Counted from the first letter of the stretch, positions 24,183 through 64,000 are shown. The stretch is DNA of 64,000 nt from Barthelona sp. PCE (GCA_040285745.1 JAUFOR010000002.1:1240001-1304000), one strand, 5' to 3'. Made by a program: numbers and translations. Notes: generated by a model from the sequence alone, not told the origin.

Positions 24183-24629
24183 CTAATCAGGAACTGCAAA
24201 ACAATAATATAGAGCTTCTTTCCTCAATGATTCAACAAAGGAAGGATTGGCAAACTTAATAATATACACACAATCAACAAAATCTTCTAGATCATAGGTA
24301 TCTAGAGAATCATTAAAGTTTGGGTAATCTGGCTTGGAATGAGATGAACTGATCAGCTGTATCTGTGAAATTACCTGATTCATGATCTGATAGGCCCATT
24401 TCTCATTGTGATAAGCGTGTGTTCGGAAATCTTCGCGAGATATCTGTTGTGAAAGGCACCATGGAAGATCTTTGCTATTTTCATGGACAATCATATCCGC
24501 GTAAGCCCTAAGAAACCATAATTTTGTATTGGGAATGGTGTTAAAATCTGGATGAGCGCTTATAATATTTAGCTTCACAACATCATCATTTATCTCATCT
24601 GTGATGACCTCAAATATAGGAATGAACAT
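24183..24629 (-). CDS. Hypothetical protein
   Basis: 148-aa ATG-initiated ORF that fills the gap and converges on the previous gene. Confidence 0.5.
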   Translation of the reverse strand: MFIPIFEVITDEINDDVVKLNIISAHPDFNTIPNTKLWFLRAYADMIVHENSKDLPWCLSQQISREDFRTHAYHNEKWAYQIMNQVISQIQLISSSHSKPDYPNFNDSLDTYDLEDFVDCVYIIKFANPSFVESLRKEALYYCFAVPD

Positions 24630-24810
24630 CTTGAGCCAATTTAAAAAAAAAGGCGATGCAAAAGAGAAGATAAAACAGAATAAAAGTGTTTACTCGAATA
24701 AATAGCGAAGAATTAAGCTGGCCTTACACATGGTACACATTTTGAGAACCATACAAGTGTATAAAGAAGGCAATTGAAAATCAACAAATCAAGAAGAAAA
24801 TTCAATATTC

Positions 24811-24943
24811 GGTGACATACAGGCGCTAGCCTTCAGACTTTATACTTGAGGTAGTAAACAGCGGAGGGGGACGAAGCGAACCGTCATGTGTAGTAGGTGT
24901 CCGTAGGACCCGATACGGTTTTTCTTACCTTTTTCAAAAAAAA
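24811..24943 (+). repeat. Split direct repeat A1
   Basis: Identical to 30661-30794 apart from the terminal A-run (8 vs 9 A). Confidence 0.97.
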
Positions 24944-24980
24944 TCTTACTTTAGTATTGCTGCGCAAGAAATTAATTGCA

Positions 24981-25346
24981 ATGACATACTTTAGAGCGGA
25001 AAGGCAAACGAAAGAACAAGTTGCGCGCGCTATCCAGCATAGATGCGAGACGTATATTGCGCGCCTGAGTGTCGTGGTTATGGAGACCTTGTGCAAGGTC
25101 CACGAGGCGGATCCCGCCGGTAAAGCCCACTTGATTGAGGCTCTCCCGAGTTACGGGTGCGGCGAGTACGCCGACGTAATGCTCTCACCGTGCGTGTTGA
25201 GCGAGGACTTCCGGGGGTGGTTACAAGCATTGGGCGAAGATGAAAGTCAACAAGGTGTTGACAAGGTCCTTCCAGCAATTTCCTTTAGCCTAGAGAGGTT
25301 TAGGGAACTTGCAAATCTTTTGGCATGCGCCCATCCAAGTCATTAG
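24981..25346 (+). CDS. Retrotransposon ORF0, unknown function (121 aa)
   Basis: First ATG after A1 (MTYFRAERQ...); overlaps the start of ORF1 by 22 nt. Confidence 0.5.
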   Translation: MTYFRAERQTKEQVARAIQHRCETYIARLSVVVMETLCKVHEADPAGKAHLIEALPSYGCGEYADVMLSPCVLSEDFRGWLQALGEDESQQGVDKVLPAISFSLERFRELANLLACAHPSH

Positions 25347-26476
25347 CCAAGAATATTGAGGAGTCGGACATTAGAGGAGTCCGGGAGATGATTAGAGCTG
25401 CCGAAAATCACTGGAAGGCAGCTCCGGCTCTCATAACGCAGGAACTGGATGCGTTCAGGGCAGCAAAGAGGGAGGCCGACAAGATCGAGGGAATATCGGA
25501 CGTCGACAAGAAACAGCTCATCAAGACGATTACGCAACAGGTAACGCATGCGAAGGAGCAGGCGCTGAACGAGACGCGGAAGCAGACAATGGCCGCGTGG
25601 GAAGAAGAACCATCCGATGACGAGACCGACACCCAGCACACGTCTTCGAACGCAGGAATGAACACCGCCATGCAGATCGCAAGGGACGCTACCGCTTTGG
25701 TGAGCGAGACGATGAAAGAGGCCAGGCAGAGTAGGATGAGAGCCACAACCTATAACGAACCTTTCGATGCGGGCATCCAACAAGACAAACTACTCAGGAA
25801 GGTCAAACACCAATGGCAAAGAGGTCTGACATACGATAAGTTTACTGCCGCCATGGACAAGTTCCTCGAGGCGGAGATAAAGCGCAACCCCACGATCTTC
25901 GCTGGCGATATTGATCTCGGGCTCTGGAAAGCGGACGACGTCCTTCCGGACGCGTTTGTTGAGGAGGTGACGGACGACCACAAGGATAATTGGTTCCGCG
26001 AGTGGCAAATTCGTCTGAGGGACTTCAAGACGATCTACGAGGACAAGGTCGGATCCCAGTATGAACACGAGTGGCAAACCAAGCGTTTGTACTTGCTGAT
26101 GGAAGCCGCAGCGGAAATGGCGTTGGGAGACACTCTCCTACTAATCGGCAAGCTGTATGAGGAACGGCCACACCTCATCCCGACCTTCATCGCTGCCGTC
26201 TCTCCATATGGTCCCAGCCGGGCCAACAGGGCGTCAGGTATCTACAACGACGAACTCAACGTCGACCACGTGCCTGACAACTGGGTTGACGAGAATCGCG
26301 TGAAGCAATTCCTCACTAAGACGCTGGGAGTCGGTAGCTCCGGCATCATGGTCGAGTTTGACCCCACCGCCACCAAGAAGGCGTTCAACCATTCCACGAG
26401 AGCCCCCAAGCGCACGCACCGTCCTAAGACGCAAAAGAAGAAACAAGCGTTTAGCGCCAAAGAGGAGGAGAAGTGA
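25325..26476 (+). CDS. Retrotransposon ORF1, putative Gag-like protein
   Basis: 383 aa, helical with a basic C-terminus; assigned by position upstream of RT. Confidence 0.7.
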   Translation: MRPSKSLAKNIEESDIRGVREMIRAAENHWKAAPALITQELDAFRAAKREADKIEGISDVDKKQLIKTITQQVTHAKEQALNETRKQTMAAWEEEPSDDETDTQHTSSNAGMNTAMQIARDATALVSETMKEARQSRMRATTYNEPFDAGIQQDKLLRKVKHQWQRGLTYDKFTAAMDKFLEAEIKRNPTIFAGDIDLGLWKADDVLPDAFVEEVTDDHKDNWFREWQIRLRDFKTIYEDKVGSQYEHEWQTKRLYLLMEAAAEMALGDTLLLIGKLYEERPHLIPTFIAAVSPYGPSRANRASGIYNDELNVDHVPDNWVDENRVKQFLTKTLGVGSSGIMVEFDPTATKKAFNHSTRAPKRTHRPKTQKKKQAFSAKEEEK

Positions 26477-28834
26477 AATCGTTCGTCTCCCCCCGCGCGC
26501 GATAGTAAATATCTATCCGACAAGGGCGTGGGAGACGCAAATGATCCCAATGCGGTCACAGCGCTCGCGGACAGGGTCGGCGAGCTCTCCATCGAGAACG
26601 TCAAATTGAAGAAGGAGATCAAGAGCCTCAAGAAGGAAATCCCTAAGAAGCAACTCAAAGCCGCGAAGATGGAACTTCGCGCAGCTACCAAACTCGTGGA
26701 GCTCGAAGACAAAAGACTAGAAGCCATCAAAGCTCGGGAAAGGAGCACACAGAAAACAAAAGCACCTGAGGACGTTAAACGGGATAAGCCCCGTAAGGAG
26801 AAAGCACCAACAGCTACTAGCGTGCAGAAGATGATCTCCAAGGAGATCAACAAACTCAAACACGAGGTTGTAGATGAGCGGAATAACGTCCAAATCTCAA
26901 GAAATCCGAAGGAGGTAGTCGGCACAGACACCATGCAGTGGCCGGCCGCGGCGCCACCAGTAGCTCTGCTGAAGCACCTCCCACCCGACATCTTCCAGAA
27001 GGGCGGCCCAAGTCAACGAGTACTCAAAGAGGTGGTCCTAGGGGTTACCGGAACATGGGATATCCTCGGAACAGACCAGATGAAGATCAATTCAGCCGAC
27101 ACGCCCACGGAACAGTTCGTTAGGGACGCCGCGCGCGTCGCTGGCCTCAGCTGCGAAGAAATTGAGAAGACAGTCCGACTGCTCGTGACTGAGGGCGTAA
27201 CGCGCGACATGGTCGTTATCGAAGGAAAGAAGCCTCGCAGGCAGGAGCCAGTACGTCACTGGTACAAAGACGACGCTGTCGAATTGAACCTGGCCGTAAC
27301 CGCGCTCAAAAGTAAGGACCTGATCAAAGAGGTCCCCATCGAAGAGATCGAGGACGAACGAAGGGCATTCATTTCCATCGGCGCGGTCCCGAAGAATGCA
27401 GAACCGGACTCAAACAACATGTTCGCTCCGACGCAGAAGTTCGAATTTGACGTCACATCGCCGGACAACGAGCACAGGGTTATCGTCGACTGTACTAACA
27501 CGAACTCTATGTTCGCCAACATTCCAATGGAACTCATCAAAACCCACTCTCTCGAGATTGTCATGGGTGGCAATCTCATGTATTCCGTCGACGCAAAGGA
27601 TGGTTTCACGCTCATTCCACTGGACGAAGAGCTACAAAAACTGTTCTCATTTACACACGAAGGTAAGCTTTATCAATGCACTAGAATGCCGTTCGGAGTT
27701 TCATTCGGCCCGGCCATCTTCGCCCGCATGATGAACCTGGCAACGACCGCAATGCGTGCGTTGGGATTCAACATCTGGAGCTACGTCGACGACGCTTTCG
27801 GATGGGAACGATCCCTCAGCAAAGCGAGGAACTCGATGATGCTGTTCATAATCATCGCGTCGAAACTTGGCATCAAGCTAAACTACAAAAAGTCCGTCAG
27901 TCCTTCGTACAAATTGGACATCATCGGCTACACGCTGAGCACCGACGACCAGTCTGACGGCGGCCGGCTAGTCTCAACAATTAGACCGTCGGACAAGAAC
28001 ATCAGAAAGATCAGAGAGATGGCTCGCGTAATGCGAAATAGAATCGACACAGCAGAACAAATCCCTGTCAGGGACATCATGAAGCTCGATGGCAAACTTG
28101 TATCATTTGCCAACGCCTCGACGATTCTTCAGCGGGTTCACCTACAGCTACAAGCAGTACTGAAGGATCTCGACGCCCAATACGATAACGCGATATTTGA
28201 CTCGAGCAGGAACAAGGGCCTACGCCTTCTCCTACCTCTTCCACTAGCCGACGCACTCACGAGCATCGTTGAATGTAACTTTGAACCGAAGACGCTGAGC
28301 TGCGGTAGAGCTAAGGTAACATTACTGAGCGACGCCATGAAGGACCAGAAACATATAGGCATTGGAGCGAAGGCATACCCAGACGACGACCAAGAGCTCT
28401 CGTTCGAACTTCTCCACAGGATGGGAGTGAACGAGCAAGGAGCAAGAAGGATGTTGACACTTCTCGACGATCTGCCAGAACAGGAAAGAGTAGACATCGA
28501 GCAGAACACTGTCGCAACAATCGCGGAGCAGGAGATGGTACCGATCGTCGAGCTACTCAAGACTAAGGGCAGACAGCTGAGGAACACCGAAGTCGTCTGG
28601 TATTGCGACAACACGAACGTATGCGCCGCTGTCGCGAAGGGCTACAGCAAAAACAAGGTCCTCAACAAGGGGGGCCCGCATAGTGATGGAACTGTGCGAA
28701 ATGTGGGACGTGATCGTCACACCAATCTACATCAACTCAGAACAGAATTATCTTCCAGACAGCATCTCAAGAGGAGCATCGTCGGAGTCGTGGACCAACT
28801 CTACGACATTCGTGCACGAGATTCTCCCAGCTAG
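26477..28834 (+). CDS. Reverse transcriptase plus N-terminal part of RNase H
   Basis: RVIVDC, MYSVDAKDGF, YQCTRMPFGVSFGPAIF, SYVDD, LGIKLNYKKS; RNase H motifs LLSDA, AEQE, WYCDN. The frame is open from the ORF1 TGA; first ATG at 26669. Confidence 0.93.
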   Translation, partial: NRSSPPARDSKYLSDKGVGDANDPNAVTALADRVGELSIENVKLKKEIKSLKKEIPKKQLKAAKMELRAATKLVELEDKRLEAIKARERSTQKTKAPEDVKRDKPRKEKAPTATSVQKMISKEINKLKHEVVDERNNVQISRNPKEVVGTDTMQWPAAAPPVALLKHLPPDIFQKGGPSQRVLKEVVLGVTGTWDILGTDQMKINSADTPTEQFVRDAARVAGLSCEEIEKTVRLLVTEGVTRDMVVIEGKKPRRQEPVRHWYKDDAVELNLAVTALKSKDLIKEVPIEEIEDERRAFISIGAVPKNAEPDSNNMFAPTQKFEFDVTSPDNEHRVIVDCTNTNSMFANIPMELIKTHSLEIVMGGNLMYSVDAKDGFTLIPLDEELQKLFSFTHEGKLYQCTRMPFGVSFGPAIFARMMNLATTAMRALGFNIWSYVDDAFGWERSLSKARNSMMLFIIIASKLGIKLNYKKSVSPSYKLDIIGYTLSTDDQSDGGRLVSTIRPSDKNIRKIREMARVMRNRIDTAEQIPVRDIMKLDGKLVSFANASTILQRVHLQLQAVLKDLDAQYDNAIFDSSRNKGLRLLLPLPLADALTSIVECNFEPKTLSCGRAKVTLLSDAMKDQKHIGIGAKAYPDDDQELSFELLHRMGVNEQGARRMLTLLDDLPEQERVDIEQNTVATIAEQEMVPIVELLKTKGRQLRNTEVVWYCDNTNVCAAVAKGYSKNKVLNKGGPHSDGTVRNVGRDRHTNLHQLRTELSSRQHLKRSIVGVVDQLYDIRARDSPS

Positions 28835-30644
28835 GGTAATCGAGTTCAAGACATCCGTCGTCGCAAGCCTCTACGAACCTGGACACATCCCAGCACTGTA
28901 CGTCCGCGGTTTCCAGCCCACAAAAGGAAAGTCCAGGAGATCAACGAAAGCCGCACATGTGACAAGACAATGTCTCGGACAAGACCTTATCTCTCTAGGC
29001 GAGTATGACCTCAAACGGAATGCGCTCAAGGTCGACAATGTTGCGAACGGGACTGCACACTGTACAGGTAAGCTCAAAATCGTCGAAGGATTCGATGACA
29101 CAAGATACACCGTCCCTCTATCGAATATGGCGATCATCACGAGAGACAACGAAAGAATCGAGGCAACAGTTCCGACTTACTCCGCAGCCACAAGCTTAGA
29201 GATAGTCATTCTCAAAGTGTGCAGAACCGGCGCGGAAGTAGATGTGATCCTCCCCGGACCACTCCCGTCTTGCCCATTGTGGGCTACAATCACACAAAAG
29301 ACCATCCCATTAAGTGATGGATCCATAAAGATAAGAGTTACGAGAGAAAAGGTTCTCGGCGGCGAACCCGAGGACTACAAGCCCGCTGGAGCACGCACTC
29401 AGAACCCGGTACAGGTACGGGGCAAATCACTATCTCTGGCAGATCTGTTCGCCATCCCACCGTCGATGGACTACGACGAAGTGCTCGAACTCTTTCTGAA
29501 AAAAGGAGCGCACCAACCAACGAGGAACATGCTACATCGCTTCGGGAACTTCGTTCAAAAGGTGCACAGCACAGAAATAGTGGACGTCGCATGCCCAGGA
29601 AACGAAAAGAGACTTGAAGAGCTGATAATCGAGTTCAGATTCAGACTCGAACAGGAAACAAAATCGAAGAGGCGTGCGAACGGCGACACCACCGAAGTAT
29701 GGAGGTACACCTCAGATACGATTAACAGTTACATTTTCCACCTGCGTAAAGGACTGCTGGTTCTGAAAATGTTCATCACCGACAAGAAATCTCTCCTCAC
29801 GACCGAAGAACTCGAGCAACTCGTCCAGCTTAGGGCGGCAGTAATCAGATGCACACTGAGCGAGAGCTCAGAAACACAGAAATTCGCCATCAGCACGTCA
29901 GCAATCAGATTCCTGGCGGCAAGAGAGATTGAAGAGCTTAAAGCACTGGTCCAGGAAGGTACCACGAAGAAGAAGGCCCTTCAGAAGCTAAACAAAGTAA
30001 GAAGAAGAATTGCTATGATGTCATCAATGTACAACTTAGGATGCAGAGCGGCGTCTCTTGCCGCAGTCAAGACCCACCAAATTGAAGTCTCAAAATCCGG
30101 CGATGTCACGGTAACGCTGGACAAAGTGAAGAACCAACAGGGTCGACCAACCAGCTACATGATCCCCAGAAACGTATGGGAGCTGGGCACACTGCACGAC
30201 TATTTAAACGACGCTGTGCAAAGAGCAAAAGAAGGAGGTAAAGAGTTTATTTTCTCGAACGGCGGAGAAGCCCAGAGCGTCTCGAATGCATTAAACACCA
30301 TGTTCCGAGATTACAACGAGAAAATCAAGCAATCTGACCACAAGAATGCAAGCAAATTCAGAGTATTCAAAATGACAGCTCATGGCCTTAGAGCCGGCAG
30401 GGCAAAAGAGATAGCACAACATCCAGATGCGACTGTACGAGTATCAGCGCAAGGAATGGGTCTCTGGAAGGATGTGAAGGCGATGAACCTTGACTATCTC
30501 ACGAAACCACTATTGACGTTTGAGGAACGAGAGGTGTTGAGTCCGATGGAATTGGAAGGATGGGTTTTAGGCCACTTCCCGGACGAAACACCCTCTACAC
30601 GTGAAGGCGAGCCTTCCCACGTGAGCGTTCCCCGACGTCAATAA
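28683..30644 (+). CDS. RNase H C-terminus, degenerate methyltransferase-like region and tyrosine recombinase
   Basis: IYINSEQNYLPDSISR (RNase H end); YR catalytic set LGCRAAS (R), DKVKN (K), AHGLR (HxxR), MGLW (W), LDY (Y). Confidence 0.9.
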   Translation: MMELCEMWDVIVTPIYINSEQNYLPDSISRGASSESWTNSTTFVHEILPARVIEFKTSVVASLYEPGHIPALYVRGFQPTKGKSRRSTKAAHVTRQCLGQDLISLGEYDLKRNALKVDNVANGTAHCTGKLKIVEGFDDTRYTVPLSNMAIITRDNERIEATVPTYSAATSLEIVILKVCRTGAEVDVILPGPLPSCPLWATITQKTIPLSDGSIKIRVTREKVLGGEPEDYKPAGARTQNPVQVRGKSLSLADLFAIPPSMDYDEVLELFLKKGAHQPTRNMLHRFGNFVQKVHSTEIVDVACPGNEKRLEELIIEFRFRLEQETKSKRRANGDTTEVWRYTSDTINSYIFHLRKGLLVLKMFITDKKSLLTTEELEQLVQLRAAVIRCTLSESSETQKFAISTSAIRFLAAREIEELKALVQEGTTKKKALQKLNKVRRRIAMMSSMYNLGCRAASLAAVKTHQIEVSKSGDVTVTLDKVKNQQGRPTSYMIPRNVWELGTLHDYLNDAVQRAKEGGKEFIFSNGGEAQSVSNALNTMFRDYNEKIKQSDHKNASKFRVFKMTAHGLRAGRAKEIAQHPDATVRVSAQGMGLWKDVKAMNLDYLTKPLLTFEEREVLSPMELEGWVLGHFPDETPSTREGEPSHVSVPRRQ

Positions 30645-30660
30645 ACCTACTTCAGTATAA
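30562..30660 (+). repeat. Split direct repeat B1 (99 bp); contains the YR stop codon and AATAAA
   Basis: Identical to 30795-30893. Confidence 0.97.
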
Positions 30661-30794
30661 GGTGACATACAGGCGCTAGCCTTCAGACTTTATACTTGAG
30701 GTAGTAAACAGCGGAGGGGGACGAAGCGAACCGTCATGTGTAGTAGGTGTCCGTAGGACCCGATACGGTTTTTCTTACCTTTTTCAAAAAAAAA
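30661..30794 (+). repeat. Split direct repeat A2
   Basis: Copy of 24811-24943 directly abutting B1. Confidence 0.97.
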
Positions 30795-30893
30795 GGGTTT
30801 TAGGCCACTTCCCGGACGAAACACCCTCTACACGTGAAGGCGAGCCTTCCCACGTGAGCGTTCCCCGACGTCAATAAACCTACTTCAGTATAA
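30795..30893 (+). repeat. Split direct repeat B2 (99 bp), right end of the element
   Basis: Copy of 30562-30660. Confidence 0.97.
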
Positions 30894-31036
30894 ATTTACA
30901 GATTCATCTGCTACTGTATGATTCCCCTGTACCAGCCACAATGAATCATAAATCTGATGAAGGAACAGCTTCTGTAACAATTTTCACGGATTCAATCAAA
31001 AATTTTTTCAATTAAAGGTATAAGGTATATATTATA

Positions 31037-31600
31037 TCACTGATATTTAATCTTTTTGGAAGATATTTTGGAACCTACAATAATTGTAACAATTCCAATA
31101 AGCAAACCAATGATTGCTCCGATAAAAAGTTGCAAAACACTATGACAACCAAGATAATACCGAGAATAACACACAAACAGGCTCAATCCGATACTCCCTA
31201 CATATAATAAATTGTGATACATAAATGCGAAAAATGGTTTTTGACTGACAGAAGATTTTGCCAATCTGTGAGTCCCTAGATCGTATATAAAGATAGCTAA
31301 CCAGCAGAACATGAACTGTGCGTGGTCTGAAGGCATCCCATATCCTTCATTAACACATAGATCACGACCACTTGATGCGACACGTTCTCCTTTTAGTACA
31401 TCCTTAATAATACCATTGAGCATTGTGTTCAGTAGAAGAATAGCTGCTGTGCGCAGATATTTTAAGTCAAACTTCAGAAATCCTTGATAAAGTGCTGCAC
31501 CAAACAAAAAAGCCGGTATTATACTCCCAAAACATGCTAAAAACGATATAAAATCTCCGTCATCGTACACAAAGTACGTTAATTTGAACGGAACAATCAT
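31037..31600 (-). CDS. DOLPP1: Dolichyldiphosphatase (PAP2 family)
   Basis: PFKLTYFVYDDGD start, GYGMPSDHAQFM, SRYYLGCHS...QLFIG, TM helices. Confidence 0.82.
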   Translation of the reverse strand: MIVPFKLTYFVYDDGDFISFLACFGSIIPAFLFGAALYQGFLKFDLKYLRTAAILLLNTMLNGIIKDVLKGERVASSGRDLCVNEGYGMPSDHAQFMFCWLAIFIYDLGTHRLAKSSVSQKPFFAFMYHNLLYVGSIGLSLFVCYSRYYLGCHSVLQLFIGAIIGLLIGIVTIIVGSKISSKKIKYQ

Positions 31601-34046: not shown

Positions 34047-35744
34047 TTATTCACCACGCTTGATTTCAAAAGGCCACATAAGAATACCACCCATCATAAC
34101 GATGACGTTGTCGAAGCCATAACGACGAAGCATGGTCTGAGCCTGATAAGCACGGGCACTAACCTTACAGAAAATGATAATTGGCTTGTCACGGGGTAAC
34201 TCTTCATGACGAGTATGCAGCTGACCAAGAATAATGTGATCTGCCTGAGGAATACGCATCATTTTACGTTCACCAGGTGTACGAACATCAAGGAAAACAA
34301 AGTCTTTCTCCTCATCAAGCATCTTCTTGACTTCAAGGTTACGGACAACCTTAACACGGTTCTCTAAAATGTTCTTTGCAATGTTACAGGCTACGGCAAG
34401 GTTATCCATTGCCTTGGAGAAAGGCGGAGAGTAGCAGAAATCAGCCATGGCAACTTGGTCAATTGTGGCTTTCATCGTCATGGCCATAACAGCAACGTCA
34501 ACGTGCTTGACACCGTTGCTTGATGGACCGACAGTACTGAAACCAATAAGCATGCGGGATTCATTCTCAACAATCAACTTTGTGAATAAAGGTTTCATAC
34601 CTTTCATAAACCACACACGATCAGGTCCAGGGCTGAGAACAACAGTATAAGCAACACCTCTCCTCTCGGCCTCTTTCTCGCTAAGACCAGTACGACAACA
34701 ACAAAAATCAAAGACCTTACAGACTGCACTTCCAAGAACACCAGTCATTTTCTCATCCTGACCTGTCAAATGTGAGCCGATGACATGACCAGCACGGTTG
34801 GAAACGGAACCGAGAGGGGCATATACCTGTTCACCGGTAATGATATTGGTAACTAAAGCAACATCACCACCAGCATAGATGTTGGGATCGGAAGTCCTGC
34901 AGAACTCATCAACGAGAATACCACCTTTAGCATGACATGTGATACCGCATTCCTTAGCGATAGCATCGTTAGGACGAACACCAACAGACATGATTACAAG
35001 ACTGGCATCAATGGTGTTTTCTTCACCGAGTTTAATACGCTTAACGACACCGTCTTCTCCCTCAAATCCCTTGCAGAATGTGTTGAGATGGATTTTAACA
35101 CCCTTTGATTTAACATGACGACGAACTAATAGTTCCATATCCTTATCCATCATTGTGAGGATTTGATCCATACCTTCAACAATTGTAATGTTACGGAAAC
35201 CCATCTCGTAGAACTCAGAAGCCATCTCCATTCCGATAAGACCTGCTCCGACAACAACAACGGGGTAAGTTTCCTTCTCCTCTTCAGGAACACTCTTCAG
35301 GTGCTCAACGAGGGGATGGGCCTCTTCATATCCCTTAACAACGTGTACACCCTTGAGATCAGCACCCTCAATAGGGGGTACAAAAGGGCGTGAACCGGTT
35401 GCGATAACAAGCTTATCGTAGTCCATCTCAAAAACATTACCCTCCTTGAGATTCTTGACCTGAAGCTTCATGTTCTGTCTATCAATGGAGACAACTTCGT
35501 GCTCCATGAGCGTATCAACCATTTTGGCCTTCTTTAACCACATGGGAGTTCTCTCGACACCAACAGGGGTCATTGTCAAAAGAGGTACTCTGTCGCTTGC
35601 AATCAGGTAGGGTAAGCCACATGTGGCGGGTGTGATATAGCTTCTTTTCTCAATAATTGTGACATCAGCATTATCAACAGCACGTGCAAAACGTGAGGCA
35701 GCTCGAGGTCCACAGGCGGATGCTCCAATACAGACAACTTTCAT
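34047..35744 (-). CDS. CoA-disulfide reductase/NADH oxidase family flavoprotein with C-terminal rhodanese domain
   Basis: FAD-binding start, redox Cys in ATCGLPY, LVIATGS, GAGLIGME, IYAGGD, CYSPPFS; rhodanese FLDVRTPGE...FCKVSAR...GGILMW. Confidence 0.92.
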   Translation of the reverse strand: MKVVCIGASACGPRAASRFARAVDNADVTIIEKRSYITPATCGLPYLIASDRVPLLTMTPVGVERTPMWLKKAKMVDTLMEHEVVSIDRQNMKLQVKNLKEGNVFEMDYDKLVIATGSRPFVPPIEGADLKGVHVVKGYEEAHPLVEHLKSVPEEEKETYPVVVVGAGLIGMEMASEFYEMGFRNITIVEGMDQILTMMDKDMELLVRRHVKSKGVKIHLNTFCKGFEGEDGVVKRIKLGEENTIDASLVIMSVGVRPNDAIAKECGITCHAKGGILVDEFCRTSDPNIYAGGDVALVTNIITGEQVYAPLGSVSNRAGHVIGSHLTGQDEKMTGVLGSAVCKVFDFCCCRTGLSEKEAERRGVAYTVVLSPGPDRVWFMKGMKPLFTKLIVENESRMLIGFSTVGPSSNGVKHVDVAVMAMTMKATIDQVAMADFCYSPPFSKAMDNLAVACNIAKNILENRVKVVRNLEVKKMLDEEKDFVFLDVRTPGERKMMRIPQADHIILGQLHTRHEELPRDKPIIIFCKVSARAYQAQTMLRRYGFDNVIVMMGGILMWPFEIKRGE

Positions 35745-56632: not shown

Positions 56633-59600
56633 TTATTCGGTGGTATTCTTTAATGTAGGCAATTTTTTGAAGATACTCTCAATAGGAACTATGAAATTTT
56701 TATGCAAGCTCTTTGGAATAATAACTTCAGGGTTATCAAAGCCCAACAATCCAAGAATCTTATTGAAATCTGCCTTTGCACCGCCAATAGCATCCAATCT
56801 AGGAGCTAAATTAAAGCTACGCACTTCATAGTGGAAAGGTAAAACCTGTTTGATCGATTTGACCTTATCAGCTTCATTCTCTTCTCCCTTTTCTCTTGTT
56901 TGTAACTCTTCCACGTACGATGATACGGTGCTACGGAAAAGATCGTAAAGATTCTTGTTCAGACTGACCTTTATAGCATCTTCAAAGTGTGATTCAAAAG
57001 CAACAACAACATCTATGCAATCAGTGGGTTCCTTCTGCACTGATATCATCTTCATTTCACCATTCGGGATCCGGAGAATGCTCGTAGCTGTGTGGTCGGA
57101 CAATCTCTCAGACATTTGTCGGGCAACTGGGTTGTTTGCAGCAAGCATGCTCAGGAAAACATCATTAATTACCAGAAGACAGTCCCTGGCAATGTGGTTT
57201 TGAAGCGTGTAAGCGTTAAGTTCCATCTCGAACCCTTCTATCATAACACTCACCCATTGCCTACTGTATATGTCTGCTGGGAAAATATTTGCACGCACGT
57301 TACGTATGTTTGCAGTGAAAAAGAACGACATAGAATCATAAAACTCATCCTTCAGTGTTTCAGCAGCAGCTTGTGTGGTTATTTCATGAATAATAGATTC
57401 ATCACTCAATGATGGCGATGGAGACTGCGATGGAGACGAAGAACTGGCGTATCTGAACCCAATTTCTTCAGTTGCCTTGTTGATGTACATTTCTTGTATG
57501 CTCTGCAAAACATCCAGCAAAGAAGGAACAGTTTGCGCGCTGAGTACAATGTCGATCGTATCTATATCCAACAAAGCAATGTGTTCATAGATGTGCTCTC
57601 CTACTGCCTCAACAACCTCATCGGGCATGTCTGCGATTAAAACAACGATTCCATTGTTCGTGAAACTTAACAGGTGGTGTAATCTGTATTCTAGAACACC
57701 GTTGATACTGTCAATAGAAAAGCGTGAACCTGACTCTCCGCGATTGGGGTACATGAACCGAGAAAAGTTGAGATTGGCGAACTGGAATCCGCCCTTAAGT
57801 GCACCCATAGCCTCCAATTCGATGTGCGCGAGCATAAAGTTCAGGTAGAGTTTCGACTCGTCAAAAAGACGGGCAGTAAACACGGGCTGCGAAAATGTGA
57901 GGGAGACCTCACCAACCTTTGAGCCCAAATCAGCACTAAGACGGATATGTTTCAAATTACAAGATACAACAACAGTCTTAAAGGCTTTCTTCCTCTTCCT
58001 CTTCTTTTTCCTCTTCTTGTGCTTCTTTCGTTTCTTCTTCAACTGCTGGGGAGGAGATTTGATGGCAACTAGCTTCTTATCATGTTCAAGCTTCTCGTTA
58101 ACCTCAGCAATGTCGTCGACGGCGGGTTTGTAATTCTCAATCATGGTCTTCAGTAACTCAATGTTGGGGAGCTCGACGTTGCTTTCCAGAGAACCGAGCT
58201 CGGTTGTAATGATGATATGGGGATTCTCAGTAATTCCTGTGCACATCTGGACGTTTGTCTTAAAACCATTAATCTTACTCTTGAAGAAGGTCGTCAACGA
58301 ACGATGCACCCTCGATGACAACTGGCACGTGATATTGGGTGCCTCAATCGTTGCAGCTGAGATGACTGCCCCTGTTGCAAGTGTAGACGAAAATGTCAGC
58401 GCTGTACGTTTCAGATCAACAGAGAGTGTTGTAGATACGTCTTCGGCTGGAATTGATACGCCAACACGATCTATATACAGAGCGACTGCGAAGGAAGAAT
58501 TCGACGTTGACATTAAGCTCTTCTGCTCACGCATCCTACGTGTCTGTACTTCTAGTTTCAGTTTCTTTTTCTGCTTTTCCTTTGTCTTCGACACTTCATA
58601 ATTGTAAAGCAACTGGTTAGTTAACTCCGCTGTCGCATGCGTCTCCCATGTGCTGACAGAGTCAACCATCTGATGGAATAAATCGTTACCGTTTGGAATC
58701 TCAGACAAGATACTAACAGTATTAATAACATAATCTTTAAACTGCGGTGTGAAATCGATAACAAACTTTGAAATACGAACCATACAGCCAAAATTCAGAG
58801 GTATATCAACTGCATTCGAGAATTGACCGTTCATAATAGTTACAGGGAATATTATCTCCTGAACAACATCCTCAGTATCTTCACGGCAAACAACAGCTAT
58901 CTTATCAATTTGAATATTGTAGTTGATAACAATCGTCTTCTTTGGCGTCGTGCTTAAGGAAACAAGCACAGAATTAATTGGATCACCGGTCTCCTGGTCC
59001 ATCGACACATCAGTAGCAGTGGTGATTGTTACACCAGACTTTCCACTGAGAGTAGATCTGTTATCGATCGAACCCACGCCCAACACATTCATCTGCTTGC
59101 GGACAAATAACGAGTCGAGCTGCCACTGCGAAAGAATCACCTTGAAGTGCTTCAGATGCGCTGGCAATACATTAAATATGAGGGGACGGCAGTTAAGAAC
59201 AGATGTTAACGAGAGCTCGTTTTCTGTCATTGGACCGCTAATTTTAACACTCAGACCACTGAAATCAACAAAAACTCCGCTGTTTGTGAGTGCGGTCAGC
59301 TGTGATACACGTAATAACGTAGTAAGTATGGACTTTTTCAGATCATGTCTTCTTCGACCAACAATGCTAAGATCCCGTAAGTTGATCTCCAGGATGTGGG
59401 GATCATTAGTTACGTCATCAAGCGGTGAAACACTTGGGAGGAATACCCCGATTGTTCGTAACTCGACCCCAAAACCAATGGACTTGAGGATGCTCGACGT
59501 TGAGCTCTTTGTCTTCTCCATCATGTCGTTAATGGCCTGCTGTGTCTCCGCAAACGAAGCACCAGGTGGTAATGAACTGACGACACTCTTCTGCTTGTTA

Positions 59601-62600
59601 GAGGAGAAAACCTTTGCGAAGAAACGGCTGAACATATTAAGTGAGCGAATACTGGCTGGGTATATTGTGCAGTCGATATCATGCAACATAAGAGAAATGA
59701 AAGGTACGTCGATGGTCGACAGTTCGTTACTGATAACCATGCTCAGCTTAGAATCAATTAGACAGACTGAATCATGTACAACACCTCTCACATTGAACTT
59801 ATGTGCCAGAAGCTGAATTGATGTGTCAGTAAACTTGATATTGAAATTCGTCTTCAGTTCTTTACGCACGTCGATCTCTATAAGACCAGTCTCAAGTTTG
59901 ACACTGCTAGCTGGACTTTCTGCGGTAATGCCTATTCCATTAAAGAAAATCTTCACGTCAATAGGTTTAACATCGATTGATTTGCTACTGGCACGCATCT
60001 CTTTGCGCTCAGTCCAAATCTCCTTGGTTCCGCTGATGAGCTGCTGAGTCGTTGATTGCTTGCCGAACTGGACCATTTTCTCCATCACTGGCAACAAACT
60101 CTTCTGAAGCGTTTCCTGCAAAGATAAAATTTGTTGAATGAATGCTGATGTAACTGTTGTTTCCATACGCGCAATGCAAAGTGCAATTTCACTACATCCA
60201 CTTTCATTTTGAGTCTTCCACACAGTTGTTTTGGGTAACTGAACCTCCGTAACGTTATCGGAAGATGTTGTTGTAATAACTGTCTTTGTCAGCTCAAACG
60301 CTAATAAAGGTGAGTGGCGATTGTTAAACGAAAGAAGTACAGGGGTGAACTTGATAGATATATTATGATTATCGCTGGGAAGGTTAACCGTAATTTCAGG
60401 AATATTACAGTTAAAGAGGACAACAGTCGGTACGGTGTGCTCGGGTACAGCAAGGCCTGAAGCTGAACGCGTGTGCTTGCGTGACCCTGTTGCAACACTA
60501 CCACTGAAATCTGTTCCCTGTTCACTAGCATTGGGCAAGAAGAGCGATAGGGATTTAGTAACGTTATCGGGAAGATTATCCCCGTAAACGTTTATGATAT
60601 GTGAAAACAACTTTGCCTTTGTACTTTCACTGACAGCAGTCGGAATACTGAGTGAATCACTCTGCGCACGGTTATTGATGAGGGGTTTGGGCGCCGCATA
60701 CCAACCCGGCAGCAAACTCTCAAAAAATGTTCCCAACGTAACCCAGAACACCGAATTTGCTGGAACATGAAGAGCAATGTTCATATTAAGCGCGTTGTTT
60801 AACGTCCTAATAACATCCTCATCGGCAGCCTGATGTGGTGTGAGAGCAGCTAAATTGAAGAACATGTTCTGAATGGAAAAGAGTGATTCAAACTTTTCAT
60901 CATAACCAGCACTGAAAACGATACTGTTAATATTGACTGATGATGATCTTTCGAGAACGAGGTAGTTTTCGCAGTGGATTCGACCACCCGTCGTTGGGTA
61001 TTGCGTATCAACAATACTGCACTGTGAAAGTGATACAGCTATTGCTGAATGCAAATTTGAATTCTCCAAAACCACAGAGACCTTACTGATGTTAATCAGT
61101 AGAGTTTGTACATCGTTGTTACCAGAAAAGCTTACAGTTTTCTTCCTCGAGAAAGAATCCATCTTACCAATTACATCAATAGCCAAATCAACGTCCTCTT
61201 CAGACATTTGTGGAGAAATGTAAGGTCCAAGGATCTCCATAAGATCCTTTGTTGATTTACGCATAGGGGAGCGCGGTGTGATGACGAGGTTCATGTTCTC
61301 AACCTGTTGTGGAGAAGCAAAGTTAAACGGTGTCAAGGAATTCTTATCATTCTTGAAAATGAACGGATCAACCATTGAAGATATCGTGTCCGAACGCTTA
61401 GGAGTGGTTAAGTACTGTAGAGGTTCCTCCTCATCCTTTTGAGCTTGTCTCAAAATCTCTCTCAGCTGACGAGTGGCACTGGCTTTGTTGAACTGCCTCT
61501 CAGAACGCTGCTGTGCCTTATACCCCTTGCTAATACGGCTCAGATACTCACGTGCAATGTGCTCGTGGTTGACCATCTCCAAATATGAAAATACAGTCTT
61601 GTATAGTTCGGGTTCGCCATGAACAAGCACCGATTCAACAATAACAGATGTAATATAGCGTTTTGCGTTGTTGAACCCGAGAACAAACCTTCCGTTATTG
61701 ATCACAACATCCATATCATTCTTAACCTCATTATTGCCATTAATATGCATACTGAGACGACTGACTGAAATCTGCAAATCATGCTTCTGCTTCTTAATCT
61801 TGCCGGTCGTCTTCTGCTTCTTAGGTTGATCATTTTGAAGCTCATAAAGCACCAACAGTTGATCAATAATGGATTCTTTAACATCTGCTGGTAGGAAGAA
61901 AAGATCTTCAAACAGTTTCTCGATAGATGTATTATACTCATCTTTAAGTGGTGTCATTACGCGTAGGGCAAACATTTGCTGTAATTCTGGTTTCGAGACT
62001 GTTTTGAGCGTCTTAAACGCGCTCTTAAGCCGATCGCTCGCCAGATCTTTATACGTTGCAATAAGACGATGCACCACATGCGGTAAACACGGTGCAATGA
62101 CCGTTTTAAATGATTCAATACTGACAATCTGCTTGTCTGCAGACTTATAAGCAGCCAAATACAGCTGTGGTTTCTTAACTGACATTGCAAAGACACTCAT
62201 TCCGACAGCTGAGACTGAACCAGGGAGCATACTGCATGCAACACCAGTAAAATACTTTGGCGATCCAAGACATGTCAGGTTACATGTCAACTCGTCCACT
62301 GATACGCATAGTGCGCTGGACTGTTGAGATGTGTTACGCCTCTGAACGAATGAGAGCATGCGCACATCAACTGCAAGTATCATATCCAATGACTGGATCA
62401 TAGGAATTGCTGTTGTCACTGTCCTGTTCATCTCTTGGGCAAACGCAGGAGGAACAGTGCCCACAAAAGCGTTTGTGTATAAAGGAACATCGAAACGAAT
62501 ACCAATCAGGTGGGTTTCCATAAGGGAACGTATCTTGACGTTGTCGGTGTTTGTGCTAAAGACACCCGAGATACTCTTATCTAATAATTGGTCGAAAGAG

Positions 62601-64000
62601 ACCTTGAGTCCATCTTTTAATACAGGAATAATATTCAAAAAACTTGATACCACTGCTGGTGATATAAACACGTCAATAGGCTTTGGAGCCAAAAGAATAA
62701 GCTTATTCGTATTGTCATGAACCTTATTAGCGGTTAAAACACTCTCTTTAATTTCAAAAAAATTGCTGTATGGTTCAATAAACAAAATACTATCATAACT
62801 GATGTCTGATGATTCTCCACTCATTGGTACCCGTTGAACACGTGATTTAACTAACTTCAGATCAATATCCAACGACGATGAATCATTTGGCTTGTCTAGA
62901 GTATAGAAATTATGAACATTCTCATGGTTATTAATGTAATCCTTCTCAGGATTCAAAAATCCATACGCCTCTTTTGCTGAAATACGATTCTTTGAGATAT
63001 CATCCTTGACTGTCTTCTCTTCAAATTCGTTTGAATCCATACTTTGCAAACTGTTGATATCAGTCATTGTAGTTGCTCCGAATCGATCCGAATCCTTCAT
63101 AAAGTAGTTCTCACTCTCGTCCGAATACAGAGATGACTCCCTATCGTAGTCCATGTGAAGCCAGGACAGGCGCTTCTCCACATCGTGTTTGATACAGAAC
63201 TCCCTTTGCTCCTGCATAATCTCCTTTGCTTCTTTTGTTTCAAACGTCTTAAACAATTGAACAGATGTTTCAACTGAAAACACCTCCTTAAATGTATTCG
63301 ATTCATCAATACAATTCAAAAGAGATGCTGCGATCCTTCCCACAGAAACTGTTAGACTATTCTCGCTCGTTGAAGAAGCTATGTTGGTCTGACCCAGGCT
63401 CATAGATGACAATTTTGAATAAAAAACATCAGCATCAGTAAGATGTAGTGCTATATTGATGCAATTCACAGCAACTAACCTCTGAAACGGTACGACCATC
63501 TTCTGAGGTTCGTAGACCTCATCCATGATGTGATGGGAGCCAGGCCAGCCATTAAGATTGGACAAAAAGCTGGCTATAAAGTTCTGCAGCTGCAAGAATG
63601 CATCAAAATCTGAGGCAACATTGATGCTGTCGATTGTATATATCTCATCGTTGAAATAAGGAACTCCATCATTATTGAAGCCCAAACGCTTGAGAATAAT
63701 CTTCTTACAGTGAGCAATTCTCTTTGATTTGAGTAATGTTGATATCTGCAAATTTGGCAACGCTACCTCCATGATTCCCGATCCAGGCTTGTTAGCACCG
63801 AGCATATTAAAGTTAAGCTCTTGTGCAAATCCAACTAAACAGTCATTTGACTCTTTTAAAACACACCGTTCACGACAGGTGTTAATCATTTCCTCACTGA
63901 GCTTAATGTTAACCTTACGTTGTTTTGTCAGTGTGACAATACACGCGTTAATATCAGGGAACGTAATTTTTGGTAACAATACAAAAAGATTATGACAATC
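56633..64000 (-). CDS. Bridge-like lipid transfer protein BLTP1/KIAA1109/Csf1-like; 5' end lies outside the window
   Basis: More than 2450 aa, open to the window edge; beta-groove-like composition; C-terminal FESHFEDAIKV and FNLAPRL...ILGLLGF...IIPKSLH resemble the KIAA1109 end. Confidence 0.75.
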   Translation of the reverse strand, partial: DCHNLFVLLPKITFPDINACIVTLTKQRKVNIKLSEEMINTCRERCVLKESNDCLVGFAQELNFNMLGANKPGSGIMEVALPNLQISTLLKSKRIAHCKKIILKRLGFNNDGVPYFNDEIYTIDSINVASDFDAFLQLQNFIASFLSNLNGWPGSHHIMDEVYEPQKMVVPFQRLVAVNCINIALHLTDADVFYSKLSSMSLGQTNIASSTSENSLTVSVGRIAASLLNCIDESNTFKEVFSVETSVQLFKTFETKEAKEIMQEQREFCIKHDVEKRLSWLHMDYDRESSLYSDESENYFMKDSDRFGATTMTDINSLQSMDSNEFEEKTVKDDISKNRISAKEAYGFLNPEKDYINNHENVHNFYTLDKPNDSSSLDIDLKLVKSRVQRVPMSGESSDISYDSILFIEPYSNFFEIKESVLTANKVHDNTNKLILLAPKPIDVFISPAVVSSFLNIIPVLKDGLKVSFDQLLDKSISGVFSTNTDNVKIRSLMETHLIGIRFDVPLYTNAFVGTVPPAFAQEMNRTVTTAIPMIQSLDMILAVDVRMLSFVQRRNTSQQSSALCVSVDELTCNLTCLGSPKYFTGVACSMLPGSVSAVGMSVFAMSVKKPQLYLAAYKSADKQIVSIESFKTVIAPCLPHVVHRLIATYKDLASDRLKSAFKTLKTVSKPELQQMFALRVMTPLKDEYNTSIEKLFEDLFFLPADVKESIIDQLLVLYELQNDQPKKQKTTGKIKKQKHDLQISVSRLSMHINGNNEVKNDMDVVINNGRFVLGFNNAKRYITSVIVESVLVHGEPELYKTVFSYLEMVNHEHIAREYLSRISKGYKAQQRSERQFNKASATRQLREILRQAQKDEEEPLQYLTTPKRSDTISSMVDPFIFKNDKNSLTPFNFASPQQVENMNLVITPRSPMRKSTKDLMEILGPYISPQMSEEDVDLAIDVIGKMDSFSRKKTVSFSGNNDVQTLLINISKVSVVLENSNLHSAIAVSLSQCSIVDTQYPTTGGRIHCENYLVLERSSSVNINSIVFSAGYDEKFESLFSIQNMFFNLAALTPHQAADEDVIRTLNNALNMNIALHVPANSVFWVTLGTFFESLLPGWYAAPKPLINNRAQSDSLSIPTAVSESTKAKLFSHIINVYGDNLPDNVTKSLSLFLPNASEQGTDFSGSVATGSRKHTRSASGLAVPEHTVPTVVLFNCNIPEITVNLPSDNHNISIKFTPVLLSFNNRHSPLLAFELTKTVITTTSSDNVTEVQLPKTTVWKTQNESGCSEIALCIARMETTVTSAFIQQILSLQETLQKSLLPVMEKMVQFGKQSTTQQLISGTKEIWTERKEMRASSKSIDVKPIDVKIFFNGIGITAESPASSVKLETGLIEIDVRKELKTNFNIKFTDTSIQLLAHKFNVRGVVHDSVCLIDSKLSMVISNELSTIDVPFISLMLHDIDCTIYPASIRSLNMFSRFFAKVFSSNKQKSVVSSLPPGASFAETQQAINDMMEKTKSSTSSILKSIGFGVELRTIGVFLPSVSPLDDVTNDPHILEINLRDLSIVGRRRHDLKKSILTTLLRVSQLTALTNSGVFVDFSGLSVKISGPMTENELSLTSVLNCRPLIFNVLPAHLKHFKVILSQWQLDSLFVRKQMNVLGVGSIDNRSTLSGKSGVTITTATDVSMDQETGDPINSVLVSLSTTPKKTIVINYNIQIDKIAVVCREDTEDVVQEIIFPVTIMNGQFSNAVDIPLNFGCMVRISKFVIDFTPQFKDYVINTVSILSEIPNGNDLFHQMVDSVSTWETHATAELTNQLLYNYEVSKTKEKQKKKLKLEVQTRRMREQKSLMSTSNSSFAVALYIDRVGVSIPAEDVSTTLSVDLKRTALTFSSTLATGAVISAATIEAPNITCQLSSRVHRSLTTFFKSKINGFKTNVQMCTGITENPHIIITTELGSLESNVELPNIELLKTMIENYKPAVDDIAEVNEKLEHDKKLVAIKSPPQQLKKKRKKHKKRKKKRKRKKAFKTVVVSCNLKHIRLSADLGSKVGEVSLTFSQPVFTARLFDESKLYLNFMLAHIELEAMGALKGGFQFANLNFSRFMYPNRGESGSRFSIDSINGVLEYRLHHLLSFTNNGIVVLIADMPDEVVEAVGEHIYEHIALLDIDTIDIVLSAQTVPSLLDVLQSIQEMYINKATEEIGFRYASSSSPSQSPSPSLSDESIIHEITTQAAAETLKDEFYDSMSFFFTANIRNVRANIFPADIYSRQWVSVMIEGFEMELNAYTLQNHIARDCLLVINDVFLSMLAANNPVARQMSERLSDHTATSILRIPNGEMKMISVQKEPTDCIDVVVAFESHFEDAIKVSLNKNLYDLFRSTVSSYVEELQTREKGEENEADKVKSIKQVLPFHYEVRSFNLAPRLDAIGGAKADFNKILGLLGFDNPEVIIPKSLHKNFIVPIESIFKKLPTLKNTTE

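Follow-up and report, generated by a model that had tools for sequence, protein, structure and literature searches.

A tyrosine-recombinase retrotransposon with split direct repeats in the metamonad Barthelona sp. PCE and the probable readthrough of its gag-pol stop codon

Structure of the element and its insertion site

We analysed a stretch of 64,000 nucleotides (nt) from the metamonad Barthelona sp. PCE, an anaerobic flagellate that has received little study (GCA_040285745.1 JAUFOR010000002.1:1240001-1304000), referred to at its full length as the window, in which an earlier note had recognized a retrotransposon encoding a tyrosine recombinase (YR) in addition to a reverse transcriptase (RT) and a ribonuclease H (RNase H). 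According to a repeat search combined with exact comparison, the element is an insertion of 6083 bp at 24811-30893, which reads from left to right as flank, A1, internal region, B1, A2, B2 and flank. The repeat search recovered both families of direct repeats in the places where the note had described them, and its account of the split repeats proved exact: B1 and B2 are identical at 99 of 99 positions, and the sole difference between A1 and A2 is a run of eight adenines in the former and nine in the latter. The broader claim of a complete element of the DIRS order, with the A1...B1A2B2 layout found in elements of the PAT, Ngaro and VIPER types, is likewise supported. The only inverted repeat found in the element by the repeat search is a single weak pair of 20 nt with 80% identity, and there is no target-site duplication, the flanks sharing no duplicated bases (the left one ends with ATATTC and the right one starts with ATTTAC).

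Before the insertion, the site was an intergenic spacer of 326 bp, bounded on the left by the 5' end of a minus-strand open reading frame (ORF; 24183-24629) and on the right by the 3' end of a PAP2-family gene (31037-31600). The composition shifts sharply at the boundaries of the element, with a G+C content of 0.515 inside it and 0.396 in the rest of the window, and at third codon positions of 0.55-0.70 in the four ORFs of the element versus 0.38-0.45 in five host ORFs. No second copy was found within the window, where blastn returned a single 21-nt match (E 0.33) and tblastn returned nothing. ORFs were called under the standard code, and the four that belong to the element lie on the plus strand. 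The features of the element are as follows, with lengths of proteins in amino acids (aa):

24811-24943, plus strand: A1, the left split direct repeat (133 nt; matches A2 apart from the terminal A8 versus A9)
24981-25346, plus strand: ORF0, the N-terminal part of gag, truncated in the window copy (ORF call; the sister models continue into gag)
25318-25321, plus strand: T4 run with the -1 frame change from ORF0 to gag (the sister copies behave as T5, judging from their proteins)
25325-26476, plus strand: gag-like ORF, 383 aa counted from an ATG of its own, terminated by TGA (ORF call)
26474-26476, plus strand: in-frame TGA between gag and pol (the same frame is open at 26477-28834)
26477-28834, plus strand: pol frame with RT and with RNase H up to its last quarter (ORF called from 26669; RVT_1, hhalign)
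26478-26545, plus strand: RNA hairpin predicted to follow the TGA immediately, which may stimulate readthrough
28669-28674, plus strand: G6 run with the +1 shift from the pol frame to the YR frame (the sister copies behave as G5)
28728-28775, plus strand: last RNase H motif YINSEQNYLPDSISRG (PDSISRG, with the fourth catalytic D), in the YR frame (hhalign)
28776-29450, plus strand: stretch of about 225 aa located after RNase H and before the recombinase, conserved between two Barthelona families
29466-30644, plus strand: tyrosine recombinase, N-terminal helical part and catalytic domain (stop inside B1)
30562-30660, plus strand: B1 (99 nt; the recombinase frame ends in it, with 27 codons and the stop codon; AATAAA at 30640-30645)
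30661-30794, plus strand: A2 (134 nt)
30795-30893, plus strand: B2, with which the element ends on the right (99 nt, no difference from B1; hexamer AATAAA at 30873-30878)

In each B repeat the AATAAA hexamer overlaps the stop codon of the recombinase and lies 15 nt from the end of the repeat. It is possible that it serves as a polyadenylation signal, which would put the 3' ends of the RNA at a repeat boundary. The host bases to the left of A1 (24801-24810, ATTCAATATT) resemble the end of B (30651-30660, CTTCAGTATA), and because of this resemblance the repeat search lengthened A by 10 nt. Comparison of the left flank with the B end (TTCAATATT versus TTCAGTATA) gives from 7 matches in 9 positions to 7 in 11, depending on the register, which is within chance for AT-rich DNA; the likeness may possibly reflect the choice of a target by homology with the B-A joint, or chance.

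Reverse transcriptase and RNase H

The RT is readily identified by the Pfam family RVT_1 (1.1e-14, with 55 bits where the cut-off is 29.6), which covers approximately 27542-27937 and includes the active-site motif YVDD at 27782-27793, and phmmer matches it to the RTs of caulimovirus, foamy virus and Ty3 in the PDB. In the RNase H, the first three catalytic residues are found in the pol frame (D in 28322-28345, E in 28520-28537 and D in 28601-28618), and the domain is split in the window copy because the G6 run puts the fourth, D, in the YR frame, at +1. All four D-E-D-D positions align to the RNase H of the DIRS type, with an hhalign probability of 95.4% (E 1.8e-8) across the frame change, and the alignment of RT-RNase H with 17 proteins of the DIRS/PAT type, in which these domains are followed by a methyltransferase, extends over 437 columns with a probability of 100% (E 6.1e-40). 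On these alignments, the RT and RNase H of the element are of the DIRS-order type.

In a HMMER scan of 1.84 billion representative proteins with pol, 5551 were matched at E <=0.001, and just two of them (P0003 and P0004, both from Barthelona) at E <=1e-30. The best match to the RT outside Barthelona has an E-value of 1.3e-18 and about 27% identity, which agrees with the earlier suggestion of a divergent family in a poorly sampled protist. A word-indexed protein search with pol gave 2 weak matches among 8000 candidates scored.

Tyrosine recombinase and the region preceding it

The frame of the YR is open from 28581, has its first ATG at 28686 and ends at 30644, being shifted by +1 relative to pol. 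The catalytic residues of the recombinase are R149 (30045), K175 (30123), H261 and R264 in an HxxR motif (30381-30392), W289 (30465) and Y299 (30495), and all six are invariant between two families of Barthelona elements that are only 25% identical in this part of the protein. For the C-terminal 347 residues, the top Pfam family is Phage_integrase (PF00589), with 2.4e-4 and 21.4 bits, and the same family is at the top for the recombinase part of the second family (P0157; 6e-3 and 16.8 bits), in both cases under the curated threshold of 27.1 bits. The neighbours of the YR ORF in the ESM Atlas are clusters of eukaryotic tyrosine recombinases (0.86-0.88), which we treat as a lead only. Sequence searches of the PDB, made both with the single YR and with a profile of it, gave only rows at chance level, and an AlphaFold2 model of the domain, with a predicted local distance difference test (pLDDT) score of 40.1, was too poor for comparison of folds. 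A word-indexed search found no relatives of the YR outside Barthelona, and a search with the alignment of the two families found just two Barthelona fragments. We accept the assignment as a tyrosine recombinase on the basis of its motif, position and context, the matches to the phage-integrase family being below the cut-off.

The statement in the earlier note that the catalytic residues are intact is correct residue by residue, for the RT and RNase H as for the YR, but neither a complete RNase H nor a gag that includes its N-terminal part can be made from a single frame of the window copy as assembled. Neither ORF0 nor gag matches a Pfam family; the C-terminal part of gag resembles, by eye, the N-terminal part of the polyprotein P0004 from the second family. 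Pfam detects no protease and no DDE integrase, whether in the ORFs of the element or in P0153 and P0158, which are full-length models.

The region that separates RNase H from the recombinase is approximately 225 aa long, and 31 of its columns are invariant between the two Barthelona families. It matches no Pfam family, its best score in the ESM Atlas is 0.80 and points to no family, and its AlphaFold2 model (pLDDT 35.3) is too poor for comparison of folds. A methyltransferase follows RNase H in the DIRS/PAT-type proteins, and we considered this region as a possible remnant of such a domain. A profile was built from 18 proteins with the Pfam Dam domain or a PCIF1-like domain, found among 98 RT matches scanned; it matches 59 of 188 stored proteins, all of the nearest RT neighbours included, but it misses the family of the window copy and reaches the second family only at E 5.9-8.6, and Pfam Dam is absent. 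Direct comparison of the region with the methyltransferases by hhalign gave E-values of 0.07-0.12 with a probability below 1%, versus 0.35-0.68 for reversed controls. A methyltransferase origin is therefore supported neither by the profile search nor by hhalign, and what is left is a faint and unproven likeness in one stretch of 30 residues.

Sister copies, a second family and the two frame breaks

Five public gene models of Barthelona, all of them annotated as "hypothetical protein" and distributed over at least three contigs, represent the family of the window copy (family 1: P0003, P0153, P0154, P0155 and P0156). Their proteins are 97.9-99.5% identical in pairwise comparisons; P0003, with 1923 aa, is 99% identical to the pol of the window, and P0154 is the gene model of the window copy itself, 100% identical to ORF0 (95 aa), gag (382 aa) and the YR frame (667 aa). 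Given the identity of the repeats and the near-identity of the five copies, family 1 is both young and multi-copy, as the earlier note had supposed when it called the element recent. A second family, also annotated as "hypothetical protein", is present in the same genome (family 2: P0004, P0005, P0157, P0158, P0187 and P0188), with several fragments and at least one model of 1836 aa; its pol is 30-36% identical to that of family 1 (P0004: 36%, 1127 aa), and in P0004 and P0158 it is continuous from the C-terminal part of gag through RT-RNase H into the region that follows.

The sister copies clarify the two places where the frame of the window copy is broken. In four of the five models (P0003, P0153, P0155 and P0156), ORF0 and gag form one frame across the joint ELANLFGMRPS, for which the T4 of the window would have to be T5; similarly, RT, RNase H and YR form one frame in four of the five across the joint LNKGARIVMEL, which would take G5 instead of the G6 of the window and is absent from P0154. 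In place of these joints, P0154 carries "introns" of 38 and 40 nt exactly at the two frame changes, in sequence that the four other copies read as coding, and from this coincidence we conclude that the gene predictor makes up introns where it has to span a break in the frame. P0153, a model of 1876 aa, is collinear over its full length, the TGA between gag and pol excepted, whereas P0003, P0155 and P0156 show local skips or out-of-frame stretches of their own elsewhere. It must be noted that the T5, the G5 and the shared TGA of the sister copies are deduced from the proteins of gene models rather than from DNA.

Because four of the five models are continuous at these places, as is family 2 at the RNase H/YR joint, a separate ORF0 and a split RNase H are confined to the window copy. 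Both frame breaks are single-base changes in the length of a homopolymer, and we think it somewhat more probable than not that they are residual errors of the long-read assembly rather than real mutations; according to the genome paper, the Barthelona assembly is based on Nanopore R9.5 data, with Illumina reads used for correction (PMC11316075). Two further suggestions of the earlier note have to be revised accordingly. The non-standard organization it described does not extend beyond this copy as far as ORF0 and RNase H are concerned, and the order of the genes is standard, but the in-frame TGA between gag and pol is found throughout the family. The idea that the window copy is possibly active does not agree with two frame breaks, unless these are errors of the assembly.

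Three sequencing runs of one study (X1, X2 and X3) were compared with positions 24400-31300 of the window. Matches of contigs from X1 and X2 are confined to the inner part of the element, at 25.3-30.6 kb, each piece having 0-1 differences, and X3 gave no match; the flanks, the terminal repeats and the T run are uncovered, and one X2 contig starts at 28673, inside the G run. At 29292 the X1 and X2 contigs have the G that is implied by the proteins of the four other copies (ATIAQ versus ATITQ). Contigs limited to the interior fit a multi-copy element sequenced at low depth. X1 and X2 are filed under two different organism codes within the one study, and their sharing of the interior of the element could be due to the same culture, to related strains or to transfer between organisms.

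In the public annotation some copies are fused to host genes: P0003 includes an upstream exon, and P0156 runs into a downstream ABC-transporter-like protein, to a total of 2533 aa. The public models draw introns of 33-40 nt over frame breaks and the stop codon.

The in-frame TGA between gag and pol

All five models of family 1 avoid the TGA at the end of gag by an identical 33-nt GT...AG "intron" at 26473-26505, and since all of them skip the same stretch, we infer that all copies carry this stop codon. It is adjacent to a predicted hairpin of 68 nt, whose GC-rich stem begins 7 nt after the TGA. The segment 26474-26548 folds at -29.1 kcal/mol, compared to -17.3 +/- 3.0 kcal/mol for shuffled sequences (z score -3.97), and only 1 of 200 shuffles was as good; for a length of 127 nt the z score is -2.66. 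The in-frame TGA between gag and pol, together with the hairpin next to it, is the genuine peculiarity of the family, and we read it as a site of stop-codon readthrough that may set the ratio of gag to gag-pol.

This arrangement resembles that of the gammaretroviruses, in which gag and pol lie in one frame, the single stop codon between them is read through and a structured RNA is located a few bases downstream. The Barthelona element has in common with them the one frame, the one stop codon and the RNA structure downstream, but differs in that its UGA is followed by A and in that the structure is a hairpin predicted from sequence alone. TGA is rare as a stop codon in the host, where it ends 2 of 30 ORFs. 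Its use as a sense codon in Barthelona is unlikely, because the standard code leaves host ORFs as long as 2,455 codons uninterrupted and because these 2 of 30 do end in TGA.

Relationship to known retrotransposons with tyrosine recombinases

The element has the hallmarks of the DIRS order, i.e. an RT with YxDD, the D-E-D-D residues of RNase H and the R-K-HxxR-W-Y residues of the recombinase, and it lacks a DDE integrase, a protease and a target-site duplication. Within this order, it does not belong to the DIRS1-like elements, with which it shares the type of RT/RNase H and presumably the YR-mediated integration, but which differ both in terminal structure and in gene order: they have inverted terminal repeats and an internal complementary region, with the YR before RT or overlapping it, whereas the Barthelona element has direct repeats and the YR in the last position. 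VIPER and TATE from kinetoplastids are likewise retrotransposons of protists with a YR and A1...B1A2B2 repeats; membership in this group fails on gene order, as it is gag, YR, RT/RNase H there (PMC6681497) and YR comes last here. For TATE of Bodo saltans, copies with a single ORF are reported (PMC6681497). PAT-like elements are similar in the split direct repeats, in the position of YR downstream of RT/RNase H and in an end-to-end alignment of RT/RNase H, but the methyltransferase-like domain that follows their RNase H is undetected in the Barthelona element, which excludes it from this group.

By architecture, the best agreement is with the Ngaro-like elements. The split direct repeats, the order gag, RT/RNase H, YR, which is the standard one for Ngaro and PAT (PMC3783388; PMC6681497), and the lack of a methyltransferase, a protease and a DDE integrase (PMC3783388, PMC6681497) are all found in Barthelona. 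On the other hand, in this comparison by described architecture only, the Barthelona element differs from Ngaro in its one frame with the in-frame UGA and in the additional conserved region of about 225 aa, and the best typable matches to its RT outside Barthelona (among the 1.84 billion representatives) mostly carry the methyltransferase domain of the DIRS/PAT type. The hosts differ as well: Ngaro is described from opisthokonts (PMC3783388) and later from the stramenopile Cafeteria (PMC8547959), and the host here is a metamonad.

Two phylogenetic trees of the RT, both obtained by quick IQ-TREE searches with proteins from metagenomes as the neighbours, gave a similar picture. The first comprised 146 rows, and left out the near-identical or partial Barthelona rows P0003, P0004, P0154, P0155 and P0156; here families 1 and 2 formed a clade (100*) on a long stem, placed on the non-Gypsy side and loosely (86) beside P0024 and the P0054 group. 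For the second tree, 72 rows were picked by hand from the 146 in such a way as to keep every major group, a site-heterogeneous model was used and the root was set with eight RTs of the Gypsy type; the Barthelona clade (99*, stem 1.28) appeared in the basal polytomy of a DIRS-type clade (85). The nearest neighbours of the Barthelona RT in the tree carry the methyltransferase domain of the DIRS type. Thus, the RT and RNase H are nearest to methyltransferase-bearing pols but the architecture is Ngaro-like, and for this reason we file the element at the level of the DIRS order, as a distinct lineage. The kind of element is known; the lineage, which sits on a long branch of its own, is new and very divergent.

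Proposed mode of expression and transposition

We consider it quite probable that the insertion is one copy of a young, multi-copy DIRS-order family with split direct repeats, whose single frame is broken only by the UGA between gag and pol. The ground plan of such an element would be gag, RT, RNase H, the conserved region and YR, encoded in one frame of about 1,890 codons with the in-frame UGA as its only interruption. Transcription would proceed from A1 towards the B repeats. Most ribosomes would terminate at the UGA and release gag, and a minority, aided by the hairpin, would read through it and make gag-RT-RNase H-YR. The RNA would then be reverse-transcribed, with the repeats permitting a full-length complementary DNA (cDNA) with juxtaposed or joined ends, as in the established model for the DIRS order, and the tyrosine recombinase would insert this cDNA by conservative recombination, a mechanism with which the observed absence of a target-site duplication is consistent. 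The window copy itself may be dead or, somewhat more likely, the T4 and G6 runs are uncorrected long-read errors in a repeated sequence.

Several observations weigh against this interpretation. It does not account for the strong contrast in G+C content with the host. The homology of the YR is below the Pfam cut-off, it has no relative of solved structure that can be found by sequence, and the AlphaFold2 models are poor. Transcription, readthrough and the lack of splicing are all deduced from the nucleotide sequence, and the base after the stop codon is A, which is not the most leaky context. A TGA common to all five copies also fits a family founded by a defective master copy, and the T5, the G5 and the shared TGA depend on models from a predictor that draws false short introns, as in P0154. 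Finally, the deep position of the Barthelona clade is weakly supported (85-86), on quick trees in which its neighbours are proteins from metagenomes. With respect to composition, the element may have arrived recently or may have a bias of its own; the richness in G+C persists although the two diverged families suggest a long residence in the Barthelona lineage.

One alternative, which we regard as unlikely, is that the family is dead, or that the window copy was moved in trans, with a TGA inherited from a defective master, real frame breaks and copies that are recent but non-autonomous. The TGA common to all copies would be expected in this case, as would the two frame breaks of the window copy and the local skips or shifted stretches in three of the four other models. 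However, P0153 is collinear throughout except for the TGA, and about 1,890 codons are otherwise open in copies that differ from each other by 0.5-2%. Moreover, long-read error explains better than decay why the indels affect homopolymers alone and why substitutions are few, and a hairpin of this strength just after the stop codon is unlikely to occur by chance (1 of 200 shuffles).

It is also conceivable, though in our opinion quite unlikely, that the stop codon is removed by splicing, and that the 33 nt at 26473-26505 are a real tiny intron, so that unspliced RNA would serve as the template for gag and as the genome and spliced RNA would encode the polyprotein. Exactly this intron is used in five of five public models, the annotation pipeline is said in the genome paper to have included RNA sequencing mapping (PMC11316075), and the acceptance of introns of 33-40 nt by the predictor suggests that the host has real introns as short as these. 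Yet the same predictor drew introns of 38 and 40 nt through coding sequence at the frame breaks of P0154, the 5' site GTGAAA and the GC-rich body of the putative intron are unlike the AT-rich host, and the "intron" corresponds to the 5' arm of the strong hairpin.

Programmed frameshifting, by -1 at the T run and by +1 at the G run, could in principle express gag and YR from a functional layout such as that of the window copy, as both frame changes occur at homopolymers, where slippage is possible, and ORFs that overlap and are frameshifted are described for DIRS-order elements (PMC3783388); we reject it as very improbable, because the sister copies read through both places in frame (four of five copies need no frameshift at either) and family 2 is continuous at the RNase H/YR joint. 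An artefact of repeat collapse as the source of the A1...B1A2B2 order or of the insertion as a whole is just as improbable: the assembly is a long-read one, and the X1 and X2 contigs leave both flanks and terminal repeats uncovered, but the layout is canonical for this kind of element, its boundaries are base-exact with host genes on both sides and a sharp change of composition, and the models of other copies run into different host genes (P0003 upstream, P0156 into the ABC transporter downstream), as expected for dispersed insertions.

Significance of the Barthelona elements

A more general and tentative proposal, about which we are rather doubtful, is that the two families from Barthelona form a fifth branch of the DIRS order, at the level of a superfamily and thus far limited to barthelonids. 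Such a lineage would have kept the split direct repeats, lost or never had the methyltransferase, gained a new conserved domain and adopted a single polyprotein, with the ratio of gag to pol set either by hairpin-stimulated readthrough of UGA or by the removal of the 33-nt intron, and it would still be transposing in a genome that is the smallest known for a free-living eukaryote.

Retrotransposons with tyrosine recombinases are uncommon, their distribution is patchy, and the early part of their history is not settled. In titles, openings of abstracts and passages of the literature, we found no report of such an element in Metamonada or in barthelonids, and the Barthelona genome paper (PMC11316075) contains no mention of retroelements, recombinase, reverse transcriptase or mobile elements. 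What is new here is the metamonad host, the depth of the divergence, the single-frame polyprotein with its in-frame UGA and hairpin and the conserved region of 225 aa. A divergent pair of families from a deep-branching metamonad offers a distant point for rooting the trees of the RT/RNase H and the YR of the DIRS order. In addition, the in-frame UGA with its hairpin would be a simple and testable case of gag-pol expression controlled by readthrough outside the retroviruses. The genome of Barthelona sp. PCE, of 10.2 Mb, is described in the same paper as the smallest of any free-living eukaryote (PMC11316075), and it still carries young full-length retroelements, annotated as "hypothetical proteins" and some of them chimeric with host genes.

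Genes in the remainder of the window

The window is gene-dense, with approximately 35 long ORFs in 64 kb and no evident introns. A scan for tRNA genes found none in the window, and a scan with Rfam gave no match. The longest host ORF comprises more than 2,455 codons at 56633-64000 on the minus strand. Another minus-strand ORF, at 34047-35744, encodes a protein of 565 aa, in which Pfam identifies pyridine-nucleotide-disulphide oxidoreductase domains followed by a C-terminal rhodanese, an architecture that we take to be typical of bacterial coenzyme A-disulphide reductases. It is possible that this protein represents a lateral acquisition in an anaerobic protist.

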